From: a virus
Direction: 5' to 3' (one strand)
IMG/VR virus record: IMGVR_UViG_3300044971_004534
DNA length: 64,000 nucleotides
In this document: positions 9,698 through 53,059 of the stretch, in pieces
Layout: each line of letters starts with the position of its first letter
Position numbering within the stretch: position 1 is the first letter of the stretch
Translations under genes and position numbers: made by a program
The notes under the pieces: generated by a model
Database searches by the model: none
The model's input: only the letters and a program-made list of their open reading frames with translations
What the model was told of the DNA's origin: nothing

Positions 9698-10327
9698 ATG
9701 GCAGAAAAGGAAGAAGTACAAGACAGCTTGTTCTCCCATGTAACCCTTTGGGAAGAACTGAGAGCGTGTAGCAAATGCTCCTCCATGCACCCTCTTTCCC
9801 ACTACAAGTGCATAGATAAAAGGGATAAGAAAGGATACTACCTACGAGGGAAGTGCCGTTTGTGCAAAAAGATTGAGTTTGACCAAAAATACGAACGCAA
9901 GTTGGCAGCAAACTTGTTCCCAGACAAAAGGGAATGCATCGTATGCAAGAAGGAAAAGCACCGCAACCAGTTCAATGTTCACAAGAAAGCAAAGAGCGGA
10001 CTGTACGGTGTATGCAAATCATGTTATGTAAAAAAGAATTACTTTTTCCGCCACTCCCAATCCAATCCCACTCAAGAAGATTTTGAGCGCTATTGCAAAG
10101 CCACTTGCTGCGAATGCTGTGGAGAGCCATTCCAAAAACAGGGGAAAAGAAAAAAGTGTCAAGACCATGACCACGACACAAATGCACTCAGAGGCATCAT
10201 TTGCCAGCAATGCAACTGGGGTGAAGGCTTACTGAAGCATGGTTCAAAATGCATTTCTGAACATTCCCGTTCGTGTGTCTTGAAGTACATGGAGAAGTGG
10301 GGAATCACCCCCAAAGATCCCGCATGA
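9698..10327 (+). CDS. recombination endonuclease VII / HNH-type nuclease
   Basis: CQDHDHDTNALRGIICQQCNWGEG matches the Endo VII DHDH-x-TG-x2-RG-x-LC-x2-CN signature; several CxxC pairs upstream. Confidence 0.75.
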   Translation: MAEKEEVQDSLFSHVTLWEELRACSKCSSMHPLSHYKCIDKRDKKGYYLRGKCRLCKKIEFDQKYERKLAANLFPDKRECIVCKKEKHRNQFNVHKKAKSGLYGVCKSCYVKKNYFFRHSQSNPTQEDFERYCKATCCECCGEPFQKQGKRKKCQDHDHDTNALRGIICQQCNWGEGLLKHGSKCISEHSRSCVLKYMEKWGITPKDPA

Positions 10328-10450
10328 ATCCCATGTCCGATCAAGATGTGCCGCCCGAGTATTGGGTGTACTGGTGCGGTCTTCCAATCCTCGTAAGGGC
10401 GTGACAGCGTTTGGCTCAACGCAACTGCAGCAATAACCCTCATTCCGATC

Positions 10451-23947: not shown

Positions 23948-24302
23948 GGGGCTGAACTGGTTTCGATTGCTGAAGGACTATTCGATACTGCACGACGAGG
24001 CTGATGGGCAACTCGTAAAAAGCCGATCAAACAACAACCGCCAACGAATCGTTGATGGCTGTCGCTGCTTGATGCAGCAAAGTTCTTAGAAGTTGGACAC
24101 TTGCTTCTAAGAACTGTCTGAAGTGTCGATCAGCGTACTGCGAAGTTCCAACGCATAAGGCGCTGAAGTTAATATTATATGATTTGGAACTTTCAAAGGA
24201 CTCATGGTACGAGGACTCCTTTGATCGACGGACTCGTACCTAGCGTGGAGAAGGTGCGATAGGACTTTTGCCAACACAGGGGTTCGACTCCCCTCGGCTC
24301 CA
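23948..24302 (+). ncRNA. ssrA: tmRNA (SsrA), tag ADQTTTANESLMAVAA
   Basis: 5' GGGGCTGAACTGGTTTCGA; 3' T-arm GGGGTTCGACTCCCC plus acceptor CGGCTCC-A pairing with the 5' end incl. G3:U; tag ORF GCC 24022 to TGA 24072 after an A-rich tract; no encoded CCA. Confidence 0.8.
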
Positions 24303-45632: not shown

Positions 45633-45791
45633 ATGAAGTCAGTCGTAGACATCGCTCGCAAGATCGCGTGGGAGACTCGCAGGGACGAGATCGCTGCGGG
45701 TCGTCGCGTCCGCTCCAAGACTTGGGGCAAGAAGTCGCGTGATCCCCGCAAGGCACGACGCGAAAGCAGGCGCGAACTCTCGCGTATGTAG
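45633..45791 (+). CDS. small basic protein (52 aa)
   Basis: ATG 45633 in frame of ORF-track 45453..45791. Confidence 0.45.
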   Translation: MKSVVDIARKIAWETRRDEIAAGRRVRSKTWGKKSRDPRKARRESRRELSRM

Positions 45792-45810
45792 AGCGCGCCC
45801 AAGCAGCCGC

Positions 45811-45844
45811 CTCGTTTTCCCCCTGCCCCGCTCCCGTTGGGTCA
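45811..45844 (+). promoter_or_regulatory. conserved intergenic cassette copy 37
   Basis: core 45811-45823; TTG +14..16; A 45844 at +21; leader hairpin plus GAAAGGA to ATG 45875. Confidence 0.55.
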
Positions 45845-45874
45845 GCCCCAAAGGGGCAGAAAGGACGCTGCAAC

Positions 45875-46078
45875 ATGAAGAAGCAGCACGACGCGGGTTT
45901 CGGGTGCATGGGGGACACGGTGGAGGTGGAGGCGCGTGTGACCGGCAAGGGCGGGCGGTCGTGGACGAGCCTCGACCGCAAGGTGGAGGCGGAGGGGCAG
46001 AGCCTCGCCTACATGGGTCGCCTGTGGTTCTGCGGCAAGGTCTGGGAATGCCCGACCCCTGAAACCGCCCTCGCCTGA
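45875..46078 (+). CDS. hypothetical protein
   Basis: ORF track. Confidence 0.55.
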   Translation: MKKQHDAGFGCMGDTVEVEARVTGKGGRSWTSLDRKVEAEGQSLAYMGRLWFCGKVWECPTPETALA

Positions 46079-46149
46079 AGCGGCGGAACCGTCCCCGAAG
46101 GGGAGCCGAAAGCGGCTCCCCTTCCTCATTTGGTGAACTAGGCAGCCGT

Positions 46150-46183
46150 ATCGTTTTCCCCCTGCCTCGCTCCCGTTGTGGTG
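46150..46183 (+). promoter_or_regulatory. conserved intergenic cassette copy 38
   Basis: core ATCGTTTTCCCCC 46150-46162; TTG +14..16; leader hairpin GCCCC-aac-GGGGC plus GAAAGGA to ATG 46216. Confidence 0.55.
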
Positions 46184-46215
46184 TAGCCCCAACGGGGCAG
46201 AAAGGATACGCAAGA

Positions 46216-46698
46216 ATGGACAAGCAGCAGAAGATGTCGGCTCTCGCGCAGATCATCGGGAGCAACCCGCAGAAGGCGGAGTTCGCGGCGAGCCTCCTGG
46301 GTGCGCTGGCGAAGGGCAACCCGACCCCCAAGCAGGCGGAGTGGATCGACCGCCTCATCAACGAGGAAGCGAACCCCGTCCCGTCGCTCACGCTCGCCCC
46401 GCTCGTGGAGGCGTTCCGCGCAGCGGCGCAGGCGGTCAAGTTCCCGAAGGTCGTCGTGGAGGCTGACGGCGTGGAGTGGACGCTCTCGTACACTCGCCCC
46501 GACTCCGACAAGGCGAAGCCCGAGAACAAGGACACGGTGGGCATCGCATCGGGCAAGTGGGGCGACCCCGCCGCGAAGTGGGCAGGGCGCATCCTCGCGG
46601 ATGGCACGGTGAAGTGGGGCAAGGACGCGACCCCCGCTCTCGCGGACGCCATCGCCGCCATCCCGACCGCTCCGCTCCCCCTCAAGACGCGGAAGTGA
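46216..46698 (+). CDS. hypothetical protein
   Basis: ORF track. Confidence 0.6.
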   Translation: MDKQQKMSALAQIIGSNPQKAEFAASLLGALAKGNPTPKQAEWIDRLINEEANPVPSLTLAPLVEAFRAAAQAVKFPKVVVEADGVEWTLSYTRPDSDKAKPENKDTVGIASGKWGDPAAKWAGRILADGTVKWGKDATPALADAIAAIPTAPLPLKTRK

Positions 46699-46733
46699 AC
46701 AGCGGAGGGGCGGGAGTCGAAAGGCTCCCGCCC

Positions 46734-46767
46734 CTCGTTTTCCCCCTGCACCGCACCCGTTGTGGTG
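46734..46767 (+). promoter_or_regulatory. conserved intergenic cassette copy 39
   Basis: core 46734-46746 after hairpin 46707-46734; TTG +14..16; same leader as copy 38 to ATG 46798. Confidence 0.55.
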
Positions 46768-46797
46768 TAGCCCCAACGGGGCAGAAAGGATCGAACG

Positions 46798-47061
46798 ATG
46801 CCCAAGTGGATCGTCGGAACGCAGTACATGGAGAACTACGGCGACAGCGAGAAGCCGTACTGGAAGGCGAAGGGCGGCAGCGACTACGCCGTGGAAGCCG
46901 CAACCGCCGCCGATGCGGAGCGCGTGGTGCAGGAGAAGAAGTGCCACAAGACCGACTACTCCGAGGAGTACATCATCGGCACCACGATCCCCTACGAGCA
47001 GTTCGTGCAGGAGTGCCGCGACCACCCGTGGATGATCGAAGGGGTCGAAACAGTCGCCTAA
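46798..47061 (+). CDS. hypothetical protein
   Basis: ORF track; last gene of the GC-rich block. Confidence 0.6.
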   Translation: MPKWIVGTQYMENYGDSEKPYWKAKGGSDYAVEAATAADAERVVQEKKCHKTDYSEEYIIGTTIPYEQFVQECRDHPWMIEGVETVA

Positions 47062-47066
47062 TCAAC

Positions 47067-47133
47067 GGGAGCCACACGGCTCCCCATCCTTTCCGCCCTG
47101 TCCCCCTAAAGGAGGACGGGGCGTGTTTCTTTG
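47067..47133 (+). terminator. two tandem hairpins, second with U-tract
   Basis: GGGAGCC-acac-GGCTCCC (47067-47084), then CGCCCTGTCC...GGACGGGGCG (47094-47123) followed by TGTTTCTTT. Confidence 0.65.
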
Positions 47134-47144
47134 CATAGGCAGAA

Positions 47145-47258
47145 AGCCGGTATGGAAGAAAGCAGCGAACAGAGACAGCCGGTATCGAAAGAGTTTGCAG
47201 AATCGGACAGCCGGTATGGAAGCATCCAAACCAACGGTCTGAATCCATCCAAACCAAC
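47145..47258 (+). repeat. short direct repeats in a non-coding junction
   Basis: AGCCGGTATGGAAG 47145 and 47209, AGCCGGTATCGAAA 47177 (about 32-nt period); CATCCAAACCAAC at 47223 and 47246. Confidence 0.8.
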
Positions 47259-47341
47259 TGGGCAGCATGGCAGGTAGCCAAAGGGTCGTACACTATACCC
47301 CCCACCCGGGGGTGCTTATATAGGGGTGATTTGGCTGGAGG

Positions 47342-47377
47342 GGGATACCTTAGCCCCTCTTCTCTTTTTTGTAATAA
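47342..47377 (+). promoter_or_regulatory. GGGATACCTTAG motif plus TGTAATAA (-10-like), copy 1
   Basis: motif 47342-47353; TAATAA 47372-47377, 18 nt after CCTTAG. Confidence 0.35.
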
Positions 47378-47434
47378 ATCCTGGTTTAAAAAATAGGGGC
47401 ATAAAAATATAAGATTTATGATTTTGAAAAAAGG

Positions 47435-47469
47435 GGGATACCTTAGCGGGAGTGTATGAATGGTAATAT
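47435..47469 (+). promoter_or_regulatory. GGGATACCTTAG motif plus TGGTAATAT (extended -10), copy 2
   Basis: motif 47435-47446; TAATAT 47464-47469, 17 nt after CCTTAG; ATG 47494 downstream. Confidence 0.4.
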
Positions 47470-47493
47470 TTTATTTTTACGGGGGGTGTGTAA

Positions 47494-47856
47494 ATGCAGG
47501 AACAGACTGATGTTATACACAAGCAGCTTGTGGGTTACGGGATAGAGATAGGGCTTCTTATTTCAGGTTTCTTTGGGGCTTTGCTCCTTGTTTCGAAGAA
47601 CGCATCGCAGCGCATGGGGGCAACGGTTGCGTCGCTTCTTGCGGGAACTGCGTGTGCAAACTACCTGACGCCTGTGGTCCTGAACTTTCTTCCTGAATCC
47701 ATCAGGGCTCAAGGAAAGTACGCTGCTGCCTTCATGATGGGATTCATGGGGTTAAAGGGCTTGGAGCTGATGATAGACAAATTTGTTAAAAAGGAAGAGG
47801 AGGGCGGGAAGAAGAATCGTTCCCGTTCATCCACTAAGAGAAAGGGCAAGTCATGA
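47494..47856 (+). CDS. membrane protein, holin-like (3 predicted helices, basic tail)
   Basis: ORF track; helices GIEIGLLISGFFGALLLV, ATVASLLAGTACANYL, AAFMMGFMGLKGL; tail KKNRSRSSTKRKGKS; the function is a guess. Confidence 0.5.
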   Translation: MQEQTDVIHKQLVGYGIEIGLLISGFFGALLLVSKNASQRMGATVASLLAGTACANYLTPVVLNFLPESIRAQGKYAAAFMMGFMGLKGLELMIDKFVKKEEEGGKKNRSRSSTKRKGKS

Positions 47857-48179
47857 ACGTGATTTCTGTGATAAACGCTGTTGTCAACGGGGTAATGGCG
47901 CTTGGTTTTAGTGCATTTCTGGTGTTCCTGTTTGGAAGAGAGAATTCCCTTATTCATAAATTGGGTAATATGAATGTTATTTTCGTGAAGATCATCCTGA
48001 GCATGTGTGCTTCTGGGGCTCTTTACAATGCGTGCATACTCCACGAGCCAGCGCCTTCGGAGCTGTTGCTTAATGCGGGTGTTGCCGCGCTGTTTTGCTG
48101 GGCTTCCGTATTCCATTACATGCGATTCGTGAAGCCAATTAAGAAAAAAGCGGCAAAGAAAAAAAGACGCACAAAGTGA
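47853..48179 (+). CDS. membrane protein (3 predicted helices, basic tail)
   Basis: ORF track; ATGA overlap; tail KKKAAKKKRRTK. Confidence 0.5.
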   Translation: MNVISVINAVVNGVMALGFSAFLVFLFGRENSLIHKLGNMNVIFVKIILSMCASGALYNACILHEPAPSELLLNAGVAALFCWASVFHYMRFVKPIKKKAAKKKRRTK

Positions 48180-48228
48180 TTACTTAAACAAGGAATGCTA
48201 GCGCAGACAGTTCACTTTTTTGTAAAAA

Positions 48229-48262
48229 GGGATACCTTAGTGAATTGGGGCAATAGTAAGAT
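48229..48262 (+). promoter_or_regulatory. GGGATACCTTAG motif plus TAAGAT, copy 3
   Basis: motif 48229-48240; TAAGAT 48257-48262, 16 nt after CCTTAG; ATG 48281 downstream. Confidence 0.35.
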
Positions 48263-48280
48263 TTGGAGGAAGTATTACGC

Positions 48281-49102
48281 ATGCATACGATTATCAATAC
48301 GCTAAGGGGTCGCTTCGTGCACGGGAAGGACGAGAGCGAGTACTACGAATCAATCATAAAAAACGTCCATACGGGAATGGATCACACGTTCTGCTTTTCC
48401 GTATGCAACACTGAATTGCCAGAGATTCCTCCGGGAACAATTGTATTTTCTACATCTGACGAACACCACAGGCAGCCCATACCGAACCACTTGCAGGAAA
48501 ACGTTGGGATACTTTTGAAGACTTTTTTCCCCAAGGAAGGGGTGACTGACCATCGTGTGCTGCCGTTTCCTCTGGGTTATTTCACGGATTTTGGGGGCCA
48601 TGCGCTTACTCCTATTGCGGAGAGAGGTCTTGACTACTCGTTCTACGGTGCTCACAACGACAATGGTCGTGACAAGCTGCACGGATGGCTAAGGAAGCGA
48701 AAGGGGGACGGATGCAAGAAGGAGTGGGGTTTTTACGAAGGTTGGGGCAAGGGAAAGGGGATGTGGGACTACGGTTCGCTGCTGACGAAGACAAAGATCG
48801 CTCTTTGTCCTCCTGGATACGTGAGTCCTGAATGCGCAAGGCTTCCAGAAGCTGCTCGCTGCGGTTGCGTCCTTCTAGTCCCGAATGACTTGCCCACGCA
48901 TCTATGGTATTTCCAGGGGTTTCCTGGGATAAAGATTGAAGACTGGTCGAACCTGAAGATTGTTGACGAACTGCTTGCAGATCCTAAAAGGATGCAGGAC
49001 ATCAGCGACGAAACAGTGAAATGGTACAACAGGTGCATTGATCCAAAAGCCGTGGGTGCATGGCTTACGGAAAGGATCAAGGAAAGAATCCAAAAGGCAT
49101 AA
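48281..49102 (+). CDS. exostosin (GT47)-like glycosyltransferase
   Basis: ALCPPGYVSPECARLPEAARCGCVLLV resembles the exostosin C-terminal motif; ATG 48281 10 nt after GGAGGA (ORF track lists TTG 48263). Confidence 0.5.
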   Translation: MHTIINTLRGRFVHGKDESEYYESIIKNVHTGMDHTFCFSVCNTELPEIPPGTIVFSTSDEHHRQPIPNHLQENVGILLKTFFPKEGVTDHRVLPFPLGYFTDFGGHALTPIAERGLDYSFYGAHNDNGRDKLHGWLRKRKGDGCKKEWGFYEGWGKGKGMWDYGSLLTKTKIALCPPGYVSPECARLPEAARCGCVLLVPNDLPTHLWYFQGFPGIKIEDWSNLKIVDELLADPKRMQDISDETVKWYNRCIDPKAVGAWLTERIKERIQKA

Positions 49103-49105
49103 ACT

Positions 49106-49591
49106 ATGCAGTACAAATTATCTAAAAGCGAATGGCTCAAAATAGGCGAACAAGCTGGATGGCTGAGGATCAGCGGGGAACAGGCAGTCCTGACGAAGCA
49201 GGGGAAATCAAATGTTGCTGGTGCGGTCTTTCAGGTGATGCGTAAACCCGAGATAGCAAAGAGGATCATTGAACTTTCTAAAATCTGGAATTCCAATTCA
49301 AGCGAGTTTAGCAAGAAGCTTCAAGATCTGGAGCAAGAGATCGTTGTTGACTATCATAATTTTTTGGACACAGGAGCATCAGAAGATTTGTTCATTGACC
49401 GAATCGAGTTACGGAGTATCATTGAAAAAATCATCTATAAAATGCTTGAAGTTGGCGACTTGGGAGTTCGGGAAGCAGGCGAACAAGCTGGATGGCTGAA
49501 GGAAGCCAAGTGCTGGAAGGGCTACAAAGCCGTTGGCATGAAGAAGAAAAAGGGCAAGACCGTTCCCAATTGCGTCCGCAAGGAGAGCTGA
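49106..49591 (+). CDS. QYKLSK-domain protein (module 1, gene A)
   Basis: MQYKLSKSEWLKIGEQAGWLRI N-terminus; C-terminus GEQAGWLKEAKCWKGYKAVGMKKKKGKTVPNCV; internal 22-nt exact repeat 49145/49478. Confidence 0.65.
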   Translation: MQYKLSKSEWLKIGEQAGWLRISGEQAVLTKQGKSNVAGAVFQVMRKPEIAKRIIELSKIWNSNSSEFSKKLQDLEQEIVVDYHNFLDTGASEDLFIDRIELRSIIEKIIYKMLEVGDLGVREAGEQAGWLKEAKCWKGYKAVGMKKKKGKTVPNCVRKES

Positions 49592-50437
49592 ATGGGTTGG
49601 CTCAAGGCGGCGCAGACAAGTGCATGGGGCCAGAACACGAGCAGGGGTGCAAGGGAAATCTACACCGCATTGCGTGAACGTGCCAATCCCCACAGGAGCA
49701 GCGCTGAGCTGAATAAAAAATGGGGGGAGGAAATAGTGAAGATACCGGGTTACGTGTCCCGTTGGTCCGGTGGCAGCTGGGCATACGTGGACTACGACCC
49801 CCAGAAGCGAAAGAACACCGACAGGATGAATCCACTTGCCCACAAGGGAATGGAGTGGAAGCTGTACTTTACCGTCAATCCAAAGGACGGGGGCGCGGAG
49901 AGCATGGGAAACACCCTTGAGGCGTTGAAAGACCTTCCGAGACAGCTGGAGGCAAACCTTGGTCCTCATGGCGTCGCCCTTCTCTACAAGATCCCTGGAA
50001 CCTGGAGTGGATTTTTGCGGGAGAACGACACAGTCGTGATGTATCACCCGTTCGAGCCTCGCAGCAGGTGGACGGACTTCATCTCTTCCGTTGTTCGTGG
50101 CTGGATGGGCAAATGGGGACTGGAGGAAGGGAAGCGTTCGTACAACGAGGGCTTTGACTGGCACGAGCAGACGGAGTACAGGGACGGAACGCAGGTGGAG
50201 CACAAGGAGATGACGGACAGGCTGGGATGGCTGAAGCCAGAGGGATTCATTGCCATGGGGCTGGAAAGGGGTGGTGGATCATTTGGCACTACATTGGCCC
50301 GCTTCATGGAACTTGTTGGCAAGAACCCTGATGACCCGCGCTGGAAGGGCTTGGTGAAGGGGGGAGAGATCAGTATGAAGGAAGCAGCAGACTGGCTTAT
50401 TGGGCACGGCAAAGAGGTAGCACAGGAACTGATGTGA
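49592..50437 (+). CDS. GW-K N-terminus protein (module 1, gene B)
   Basis: MGWLKAAQ start; AAGGAG SD; noticeably more GC-rich than its neighbours. Confidence 0.65.
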   Translation: MGWLKAAQTSAWGQNTSRGAREIYTALRERANPHRSSAELNKKWGEEIVKIPGYVSRWSGGSWAYVDYDPQKRKNTDRMNPLAHKGMEWKLYFTVNPKDGGAESMGNTLEALKDLPRQLEANLGPHGVALLYKIPGTWSGFLRENDTVVMYHPFEPRSRWTDFISSVVRGWMGKWGLEEGKRSYNEGFDWHEQTEYRDGTQVEHKEMTDRLGWLKPEGFIAMGLERGGGSFGTTLARFMELVGKNPDDPRWKGLVKGGEISMKEAADWLIGHGKEVAQELM

Positions 50438-50460
50438 CGAACACCTGTTTTGTTTTTTGT

Positions 50461-50492
50461 ATCCCCCGAAAAATTATGGAGGGGGATTTTTA
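50461..50492 (+). terminator. rho-independent terminator
   Basis: ATCCCCC ... GGGGGAT stem followed by TTTTTATT. Confidence 0.6.
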
Positions 50493-50662
50493 TTATATTG
50501 TTCTGGTTGAAAAAACATCGACCTGTTGAGATGCCCCTAAAAAAATTTTTGGCGCGTTAATACTGGGTTACTGATGGAGGGGGCGGAAATTTTTATAATC
50601 ATCATAAGACCAAAAGGGAAAGACTATTAATCAAAGCAATATAATAAATAGGGAGACTCAAT

Positions 50663-51601: not shown

Positions 51602-53059
51602 ATGAAAATACTACTCGCAATTTTAGTAAGTGCTCTTATCGTAAACGGTTCTGAATTTAAGAAAAATACAACAAACAAGAACGTCGTAACCGCCACGGAA
51701 ACCCAGGTGAATACGGCGTTTGTCGGTTTTAATGACGGCGTTTCTCTGGAGGACAAACAGAGGACTATTGCATCTCTTGGGAACATGATTGAGTCTGCAC
51801 ATTATTATGAAAATATCCCCAATTTGGCACTTGTCGTTGTTTCGAGTAACTTTATAACTAACATAGCAGACGTGTCAAGTGCACTTGAAGGAAATGAGAC
51901 TGTTTCATTCTTTGAAATGGACAGAAGATTTACCGCAACATACAGCGAAGTGATTCCAAACGATGCCGGATTCTCACAATGCTGGGGTCACAGAAATACC
52001 GGAGCTTCTGGTGGACTGGTAAACTTTGATATGAATACAACAAATGCATGGTCTATTACTCAAGGACAGCCAACGGTAAAAATACTTGTCTTTGAGACAG
52101 GAATACAGCAAGATCATCCAGATATAAATCAACTGCCAGGAAGAGACTTCACAACAGGTGCAGTGAACGGAGTAAGCGGCGGTGGACCAAGCAACTCTTG
52201 TGACAATCACGGGACTGCCGTTGCAGGATGCATTACAGGCATTATCAACAATTCAATAGGAACCGTGGGAACTGCACCAAATTGCAAAGTCATTTCCGCA
52301 AAAGTTGGCACAGCAATCACTCCATGCAATGGGTCGTGGCAGGGGCAAACATCATGGACTGTAAATGCTATTAACTGGGCAATCGGCAATGGAGTAAGGG
52401 TAACAAACAACAGCAATGATTACGGCACAGCTTCTACGGCAATGTCAAATGCATATTCTGCCGCAAAAAATGCTGGAATAGTTAATTTTGCAAGTTCTGG
52501 AAATTCTGGAAACACTTCTATTGGTTTCCCAGCAAGTGCTTCTGCGGTGAACGCAGTTGGTGCAAGCAGCAGAAACGGACAGAAAGCTTCTTTTTCGTCA
52601 TACGGCACAAAGCTCGCTTTTGTTGCTGCTGGCCAATCGGTTTACACCACAGACAGGACGGGATCAAATGGATACTCTTCAGGTGACTATTCACTTATTG
52701 ACGGAACTTCTTTTTCTTCCCCATATGCCGCTGGTGTCGCAGCACTTATCATTTCAGTGAACCCATCACTTTCTGCAGCACAGGTTGAGTCCATTATGCA
52801 AACAACATGCAAGGACATGGGAGCAGTAGGATTTGACACTCTTACTGGATGGGGAATGCTGAATGCAGAAGCTGCCGTGCTTCTTGCTCGCCCTGTTCCA
52901 TGCCCAGCAGATTTAAATGGAGACAGGTCTGTCAATGGAAGCGATCTTGGTCAATTGTTGTCTTCATGGGGTTCATCTGGATCTGACCTTACTGGAGATT
53001 CAGTCGTCAATGGCGAAGATTTAGGCGTTCTTCTTTCTGCATGGGGGCCTTGTCCGTAA
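51602..53059 (+). CDS. secreted subtilisin-like (S8) serine protease with C-terminal dockerin-like repeats
   Basis: Signal peptide MKILLAILVSALIVNG; catalytic D (VFETGIQQDHPD), H (NHGTAVAG), S (GTSFSSPYAAG); tail DLNGDRSVNGSDLGQLLSSWG / DLTGDSVVNGEDLGVLLSAWG. Confidence 0.9.
   Translation: MKILLAILVSALIVNGSEFKKNTTNKNVVTATETQVNTAFVGFNDGVSLEDKQRTIASLGNMIESAHYYENIPNLALVVVSSNFITNIADVSSALEGNETVSFFEMDRRFTATYSEVIPNDAGFSQCWGHRNTGASGGLVNFDMNTTNAWSITQGQPTVKILVFETGIQQDHPDINQLPGRDFTTGAVNGVSGGGPSNSCDNHGTAVAGCITGIINNSIGTVGTAPNCKVISAKVGTAITPCNGSWQGQTSWTVNAINWAIGNGVRVTNNSNDYGTASTAMSNAYSAAKNAGIVNFASSGNSGNTSIGFPASASAVNAVGASSRNGQKASFSSYGTKLAFVAAGQSVYTTDRTGSNGYSSGDYSLIDGTSFSSPYAAGVAALIISVNPSLSAAQVESIMQTTCKDMGAVGFDTLTGWGMLNAEAAVLLARPVPCPADLNGDRSVNGSDLGQLLSSWGSSGSDLTGDSVVNGEDLGVLLSAWGPCP

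Follow-up and report, generated by a model that had tools for sequence, protein, structure and literature searches.

The gap at positions 47062-47493 of IMG/VR virus record IMGVR_UViG_3300044971_004534, within the 64,000-nt stretch analysed here (the window), is a real, clade-conserved boundary between an array of small genes rich in guanine and cytosine (GC) and an AT-rich block. The change of composition at this junction is a maintained two-regime codon usage and not a trace of foreign DNA. We lean towards regarding the gap as a terminator combined with a switch-promoter or operator hub, placed between temporal gene classes of a huge phage. The seven lineages compared are that of the window, L032/G001, L021/L022/L030, L049/G004, L044/G002, L068 and L072.

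Conservation of the junction

Six lineages besides that of the window keep the junction architecture, and the proteins compared are 36-89% identical. L032 and the window are colinear over 34-47 kb, with 45-89% identity between their proteins; the genes that L021 has in common with the window are scattered (36-70% identical), and both sides are present in every lineage that extends far enough. L025, a Logan contig assembled from another run, is 99.2% identical to the window across 46298-49169 and extends from 46298 past the junction as far as 59433. Within the gap it differs at six positions, four of them in the part that holds the direct repeats R1 and R2 and none at 47260-47426. Two metagenome contigs, L065 and L069, carry the same join. 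Given a 99% identical strain from another run and seven diverged lineages with the join, it is neither a chimera nor a recent acquisition. A first-pass annotation of this DNA had proposed a search of related genomes for presence or absence of the downstream block; the same join and step occur in seven lineages, and neither side is polymorphic in this way among those that extend far enough.

In all seven lineages the gap contains a composite element of about 60 nt, in which a C-run/G-run hairpin invariably stands 46-47 nt before a conserved box (box 1). The C/G tract annotated at 47298-47313 is present as C6/G5 at 47298-47312. The exact 16-mer of box 1 recurs at 47432, and one to four further boxes per lineage lie 35-62 nt upstream of the first AT-side start codons. 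No -10-like hexamer ever follows box 1 in the seven lineages. The gene-proximal boxes, in contrast, are followed in 7/7 lineages by an AATAAT/AATAGT-type hexamer 13-14 nt on, which gives them the -10-like hexamer at a fixed distance (17-nt spacer) that is characteristic of sigma-70-type promoters. In L068 and L072 the ATG stands 35 nt after the start of the box, and the message would be leaderless if the hexamer is a -10 element.

The box is a single-locus signal. Contigs of 84, 130, 379 and 61 kb contain 2, 3, 2 and 5 copies, always in one cluster, with none for a reversed control, and the 379-kb contig (G003) is rated complete. In the window the GGGATACCTTAG motif has three copies (47342, 47435 and 48229) and no others. 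The annotated claim that a different motif takes over at the junction thus holds for the appearance of this motif, though with three copies only. The box pair of the more distant G003 is associated with a gap of at least 440 nt, a change of GC at third codon positions (GC3; 0.32 versus 0.45-0.66), and five direct repeats of its own. In locus L074 (G003 50200-70199, reverse strand), the unique box pair and then about five direct repeats of type ATGATCGGGGAAAACTATCGGGG are found at approximately 10035-10400; the C-run in G003 stands after each box, not before.

Conservation in the gap appears to act on the DNA sequence itself. Compared with L032, R2 is identical at 39/40 positions and the stretch from the composite hairpin to box 1 at 54/59, versus 68-81% for coding DNA. 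The pairs of the composite hairpin are all invariant and without covariation, which suits a DNA site. RNAalifold likewise returned invariant pairs only (covariation in 0/14 predicted pairs), and an Rfam search of the gap gave no match. This combination suggests conservation at the sequence level, as for a site read by a protein. A structured RNA at the junction was considered and rejected on these grounds and on the folding of the repeat region (z -0.8, no stabler than shuffles).

Some candidate matches were discarded. Two-box patterns that are spaced by 105 or 111 nt and lack a GC step proved to be coding repeats of unrelated phages, and L031, L034, L035, L037 and a single bacterial metagenome-assembled genome are chance matches. 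The idea that the sequence after box 1 is a copy of the lineage's early motif was dropped, being true in 2/4 lineages. An 8-mer after box 1 does match the lineage's own early motif in the window (47352-47372; CTCTTTTT, seven array copies) and in L021 (7581-7600; CTGCGTTT, five copies), which is not so in L032 and G004.

Composition and codon usage

The switch from GC-rich to AT-rich sequence described in the first-pass annotation is borne out. Its maximum-likelihood change-point is 47123 (support 47097-47366), and GC falls from 0.63-0.70 at 45.8-47.0 kb to 0.40 at 47.3-47.6 kb; it then stays near 0.48 as far as 50.4 kb and is near 0.35 beyond 53 kb. The last two genes of the array have GC3 values of 0.93 and 0.91, and the three genes that follow have values of 0.56, 0.51 and 0.56. 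The GC-rich codon style and the long antisense open reading frames (ORFs) reported for the upstream side are both present, the latter exemplified by 45639-46829 on the minus strand. All seven lineages show the step at the junction, with GC in the 1.5 kb upstream/downstream of 0.65/0.46, 0.64/0.41, 0.63/0.36, 0.67/0.51, 0.62/0.52, 0.65/0.50 and 0.59/0.42, and the change-point lies inside the junction in the three lineages tested (window, L021 and G004).

As to whether the change is stepwise or gradual, there is a step, but it rides on a gradual rise towards the junction in the GC profile of the window. Over the 15-20 kb upstream, GC climbs towards the junction (rho 0.42 in the window, 0.83 in G001, 0.90 in G004 and 0.76 in L021), and downstream it declines away from it (rho -0.79 in the window, -0.50 in G002 and -0.54 in L021). 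The GC3 of array genes increases with position (rho 0.50, p 0.002); p-values for this cusp are optimistic, given the autocorrelation of 1-kb windows and the common ancestry of the lineages.

The two sides also differ strongly once GC is normalised, as a comparison of their signatures shows: Karlin delta* (GC-normalised dinucleotides) is 115-172 between the sides versus 18-76 within the array. The AT-type signature reappears at 8-16 kb of the window, which, with this strong difference, points to a genome that is a maintained mosaic of two regimes. Block by block, 1-8 kb resembles the GC-rich array (delta* 18-45) and 8-16 kb resembles 47.5-51 kb (delta* 50). The suggestion of a module boundary made by foreign acquisition is therefore right in that two kinds of DNA meet here, but the join in seven lineages speaks against a recent event. 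Downstream, parts of the junction core are echoed in a second non-coding gap (Table 1) by two GGAGGGGG motifs, a CTGGTTGAAAAAAC stretch and a hairpin of the C5...G5 form, and this gap may mark a further boundary of this type, though a weaker one.

Codon choice flips with composition, and the AAA, AGA and TTA codons noted earlier on the AT side are indeed preferred there. As shares of their synonymous families in the array and the AT block, AAA accounts for 0.07 and 0.71, AGA for 0.05 and 0.58, TTA for 0.00 and 0.32, GAA for 0.37 and 0.77, and GGA for 0.22 and 0.46. The phage transfer RNAs (tRNAs) in the window read exactly these five codons. Codons cognate to them make up 6.1% of the array, 11.8% at 47.5-50.4 kb and 20.4% of the AT block. 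Phages are known in which codon usage is partitioned between early and late genes (PMC5683454), and phage tRNAs serve late genes (PMC12482277); the flip towards phage-tRNA codons fits both. As in such phages, synonymous codon use would differ by temporal class, with phage tRNAs matching the later class. Unlike them, the junction shows a larger contrast (GC3 of 0.9 versus 0.3-0.55; AAA 7% versus 71% of lysine codons) and a sharp switch (a step within 300 nt) that is conserved across the clade. A limited literature search found no account of such a codon and composition dichotomy in huge phages.

The end of the array and the repeats

The coordinates of the junction and its neighbours are collected in Table 1. 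Upstream, an early "cassette" promoter-like motif occurs in 37 plus-strand copies from 16508 to 46734, the last of which precedes gene 46798-47061. None lies beyond, in agreement with the annotated end of the cassette regulon at this point. Each lineage has a different array motif.

Table 1. Features of the junction and its surroundings in the window
Feature	Position	Strand	Remarks
Last gene of GC-rich small-gene array, 87 amino acids, GC3 0.91	46798-47061	+	homologs in L032 (72%) and L021 (36%)
Hairpin 1, GGGAGnC...GnCTCCC type	47067-47084	+	16/18 positions identical in L032
Hairpin 2, T-rich stretch after it	47094-47123	+	26/30 positions identical in L032
Apparent vestigial cassette leader, GGCAGAAAG + 5 nt + ATG	47138-47154	+	heads a non-conserved 41-codon ORF
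R1, three direct repeats, core GCCGGTATGGAAG, 32-nt spacing	47145-47221	+	also in L032
R2, two direct repeats CATCCAAACCAAC, 23-nt spacing	47223-47258	+	39/40 positions identical to L032
C-run/G-run hairpin TACCCCCCACCCGGGGGT, first half of composite	47296-47313	+	7/7 lineages
Box 1, core GGGATACCTT at 47342-47351, second half of composite	47339-47354	+	invariant in seven lineages
A-run then G-run, AAAAAATAGGGG, between boxes	47388-47399	+	6/7 lineages
Box 2, gene-proximal	47432-47447	+	59 nt before ATG 47494; A/T-rich hexamers 47458-47469
First AT-side gene, holin-like membrane protein, 120 amino acids	47494-47856	+	PHROG 2359 'holin', E 5e-9
108-amino-acid gene coupled to holin-like gene	47853-48179	+	L021 homolog 59%, after its holin-like gene
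Box 3 and AATAGT 13 nt on	48226-48257	+	before glycosyltransferase-like gene 48263/48281-49102
Second non-coding gap, 225 nt	50438-50662	+	second change-point 50447, support 50364-50491

The two tandem hairpins first reported at 47067-47133 are confirmed at 47067-47084 and 47094-47123. Together they fold at -38 kcal/mol (z -4.8), a stability reached by 0/200 shuffles. The type of hairpin 1 also closes other cassettes (44973, 46101 and 46712). An equivalent strong hairpin is found in L021, L068 and L072, and a strong hairpin after the last array gene is common to all seven lineages. Hairpin 2 is the probable terminator of the array. The sequence downstream of it, GTGTTTCTTTG, is T-rich yet interrupted, hairpin 1 lacks a T run, and a consensus scan listed neither.

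Between hairpins 1 and 2, L032 has an intact early motif, and the window is short of about 40 nt there. A leader of the form GGCAGAAAGGA-N6-10-ATG stands after every early motif. With the motif lost in the window and the usual cassette leader at the start of the R1/R2 stretch, this stretch looks like a decayed last cassette, putatively re-used for binding sites. The gap is non-coding, as annotated. Its sole ORF (47152-47277) was rejected as a gene, its frame and length not being kept in L032 owing to indels of 17 and 1 nt. Differences from L032 at codon positions 1/2/3, counted by eye from the alignment, are 9/7/3, which is not coding-like.

The three repeats about 32 nt apart and the two-copy repeat were also correctly described: copies of AGCCGGTAT[GC]GAA are exact at 47145, 47177 and 47209, and those of CATCCAAACCAAC at 47223 and 47246. 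These repeat counts were reached in 0/100 shuffles. L032 has three R1 copies at unchanged spacing, with cores 87% identical versus 61% for spacers, and in the 84-kb contig G001 both copies of R2 sit at the junction, with none elsewhere. R1 is absent from L021, L068, L072, L044 and L049, and both repeats are confined to the window lineage and its sister L032. A single TCCAAACCA is present inside a small palindrome in L021 and L068. Other direct repeats occur in L044 and L049, and none are found at the junction in L021, L068 and L072; it is thus not a general rule that a lineage carries direct repeats of its own ahead of the hairpin. In L049 (1290-2100, reverse strand) there are four tandem boxes at 23-24-nt spacing, and the sequence upstream holds a (GGCA)n microsatellite as well as a 13-nt tandem array. 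In L044 (11230-11807), 95-nt and 23-nt direct repeats lie upstream of the hairpin.

Genes beyond the junction

The first gene past the core varies. In the window it is the holin-like gene, which is 70% identical in L021 and is not at this position in L032. In L032 it is glycosyltransferase-like, and a box homologous to box 3 stands immediately after the core of that lineage. L021 has a 347-amino-acid AT-rich gene, L068 and L072 have MNWYK-tag genes, and L044 has another gene. The glycosyltransferase-like gene belongs to PF24785 through its homologs; a family search with the 108-amino-acid protein gave no match.

Traces of exchange are visible around the boxes. The upstream flank of box 2 in L032 matches that of window box 2 at 15/30 positions (versus 11/30), and its downstream flank matches that of window box 3 at 22/40 (versus 12/40), although these are small numbers. 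At 7664-7705 of L021, ATGAATTG follows box 2 and is succeeded by stop codons; L068 and L072 have an intact MNWYK start at the corresponding place. The L021 sequence looks like a relic of an MNWYK-type start, and the 347-amino-acid gene behind it like a later insertion.

Elsewhere in the window, the plus strand carries nearly all credible genes, seven tRNA genes and one transfer-messenger RNA (tmRNA) gene. The window's proteins are phage-like or without assignment (holin-like, subtilase, DUF932, KaiC/DnaB-type ATPase). A DNA search of 44-52 kb against GenBank phages gave no match, and a related-locus search with the glycosyltransferase-like protein alone as query found no loci. With the subtilase as query, 20 loci were found, 19 in unrelated contexts; the one syntenic locus, on contig L011, stops about 1 kb short of the junction. 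Homologs of the subtilase gene (51602-53059) that are about 70% identical are present on at least 19 IMG/VR contigs with neighbours unrelated to those in the window, and by this pattern the gene behaves as a mobile accessory gene. L025 (and L026) lack about 307 bp (window 49170-49476) inside gene 49106-49591, a strain-level indel in a tagged-protein gene. The phage-borne tmRNA gene (23948-24302, tag ANESLMAVAA) lies amid tRNA genes, within the region bearing the early promoter-like motif.

A possible switch between gene classes

If the gap is a terminator and switch hub, transcription of about 30 kb of small GC-rich genes, each with its own lineage-specific promoter-like motif, would end at the two hairpins (47067-47123). 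The degenerate leader of a last cassette would come next, bearing the phased R1 and R2, which are probably sites for a lineage-specific protein. It would be followed by the composite DNA site of about 60 nt, made up of the C-run hairpin and, 46-47 nt later, box 1. Further boxes, each with an AATAAT-like hexamer 13-14 nt on, would form a sigma-70-type geometry with a 17-nt spacer and an unusual -35 (GGGATA). These boxes would restart transcription into the AT-rich block, where the first gene in the window is holin-like and where codons read by the phage's own tRNAs are used. On this model the array would be early, the boxes would be promoters or operators, and proteins would bind R1 and R2.

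The late genes of lambda offer a parallel, as they are controlled from a single late promoter, pR', with Q antitermination, which heads the lysis cassette. The junction is like the pR' region in that one control region would stand at an early/late boundary, with a holin gene first and a long same-strand run. It is unlike it in having several boxes rather than one promoter, and no Q-like gene or Q-binding element was identified.

Several observations weigh against such a hub. The hexamer at the -35 position, GGGATA, is unlike TTGACA and, to our knowledge, is no known -35, and a consensus scan of the plus strand of the gap found no canonical sigma-70 promoter. A promoter class confined to a single locus is unusual, and the model does not account for box 1 and the composite element, which are without promoter geometry. 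In the distant, complete G003 there is no hexamer at either box. The labels "early" and "late" are taken from gene style only. The match between tRNAs and codons is confounded with AT content, and the tRNAs counted are those in the window. Moreover, a simple promoter/terminator model does not predict the gradual rise of GC to the junction from both sides.

Alternative explanations

The first-pass annotation had proposed an origin of replication, a pac/cos region or a regulatory hub. The hub fits best, and an origin, in which R1, R2 and the boxes would be iterons for an initiator beside an AT-rich unwinding stretch at 47355-47480, is very unlikely. Iteron-type origins, of which lambda ori and T4 oriE are examples, have clustered same-orientation direct repeats with helical phasing beside an A/T-rich stretch. 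The junction resembles them in its phased direct repeats, whose 32-nt spacing is close to three helical turns, next to an interval between boxes 1 and 2 that reaches 72% AT in the window; each genome has a single box cluster, and the box locus of G003 lies at a local GC-skew inflection. However, an iteron origin is weakened by the restriction of R1 and R2 to the window and L032 lineages and by the box 1-box 2 interval, whose AT fraction of 0.41-0.72 across lineages includes no conserved unwinding element. No DnaA boxes are found in the gap (four in the window versus 5.4 expected), no initiator-like gene is adjacent, and the cumulative skew of the window rises straight through the junction without a switch or an extreme. 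The skew of G003 has its extremes near 0 and 350 kb, not 60 kb, and about five local inflections, the box locus being one of them; the boxes are also scattered between genes, at distances of up to 1.3 kb. It is somewhat less improbable, though still quite doubtful, that the gap is a polar cis-acting DNA site, either a T5-like entry pause or a start of packaging or recombination, which separates the DNA that enters first and shapes composition by distance. In T5-like phages the injection stop signal (iss) is a large untranslated region of direct and inverted repeats that ends the pre-early block, its order conserved and the adjoining ORFs poorly so (10.1101/866236). The gap is likewise untranslated, repeat-rich and better conserved than the ORFs beside it, at the end of a block whose early or pre-early type is suggested by its genes. 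The confinement of the box to one locus would also suit such a site, as would, in several lineages, a GC cusp with the junction at its centre. On the other hand, the gap is 0.43 kb long versus 1.2-1.7 kb for the iss, it lacks paired DnaA boxes, and there is neither a terminase gene nor a terminal repeat nearby. Five independent contigs stop about 0.25-1.3 kb from the junction (the ends of G001, G002 and G004 and the starts of L025 and L011); because they end on both sides and at differing positions, they point to assemblies breaking where the composition changes abruptly and the neighbours vary, and several contigs of 75-400 kb run through. We would give equally low odds to the broader proposal that a once-per-genome polar site sets which DNA acts first and drives the 15-20 kb GC cusp of several lineages by a process that depends on distance, for example GC-biased repair. 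In that case, where a sequence lies with respect to a single cis element, and not the origin of its genes, would shape the composition of the phage genome.

A recombination joint, in which the box regions would be mobile promoter cassettes of the PeSL (promoter-early stem-loop) kind where gene cassettes are exchanged, and would have no particular role as a switch, is unlikely as a full account, though less so than either of the preceding sites. PeSLs of T4-like phages are short terminator/promoter composites between small early genes of hyperplastic regions that serve as points of cassette exchange (PMC2839356, PMC4122927). In keeping with this precedent, the array up to 46.8 kb has units of a hairpin and a promoter-like motif, the boxes flank variable genes, and three or more different first genes follow one core; the flanks of L032 box 2, hybrid between window boxes 2 and 3, and the apparent MNWYK start relic after box 2 of L021 make PeSL-type recombination from box to box a reasonable inference. 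Unlike PeSLs, however, the junction box has 2-5 copies at one locus per genome (versus 37 copies of the array motif), is invariant across lineages, and is tied to the composite site and the composition step. Recombination leaves the invariant composite, its fixed 46-47-nt spacing and its single-locus status unexplained, and as it is compatible with a terminator and switch hub, it is an added property more than a true alternative. Hardly credible, finally, is a recent foreign block, an assembly chimera or a prophage-host junction. The stepwise change of GC and the delta* between the sides are what such an event would leave, but the join is repeated in independent assemblies and seven diverged lineages, and the AT-type signature is also found at 8-16 kb of the window. 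A prophage-host junction, raised in the first-pass annotation, is rejected because both sides carry phage genes; no integrase, att duplication or flanking tRNA was found in the window, where the nearest tRNA lies at 30.8 kb.

Implications

An abrupt change of composition is routinely taken as foreign DNA or mis-assembly, and here it is a conserved, built-in feature of a clade whose members are huge phages. Such a step could mislead binning, chimera filters and the detection of islands. A boundary between temporal classes is known in kind; what stands out in this one is the sharp, conserved composition step together with a clade-invariant signal at a single locus. The junction may offer a handle on the timing of expression in uncultured huge phages, with a lineage-specific signal for about 40 small genes and, where these give way to genes matched in their codons to the phage tRNAs, a clade-invariant signal that occurs once per genome. 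If the box is a switch, its reader, whether a conserved phage factor or a host factor, would be a key regulator to look for.

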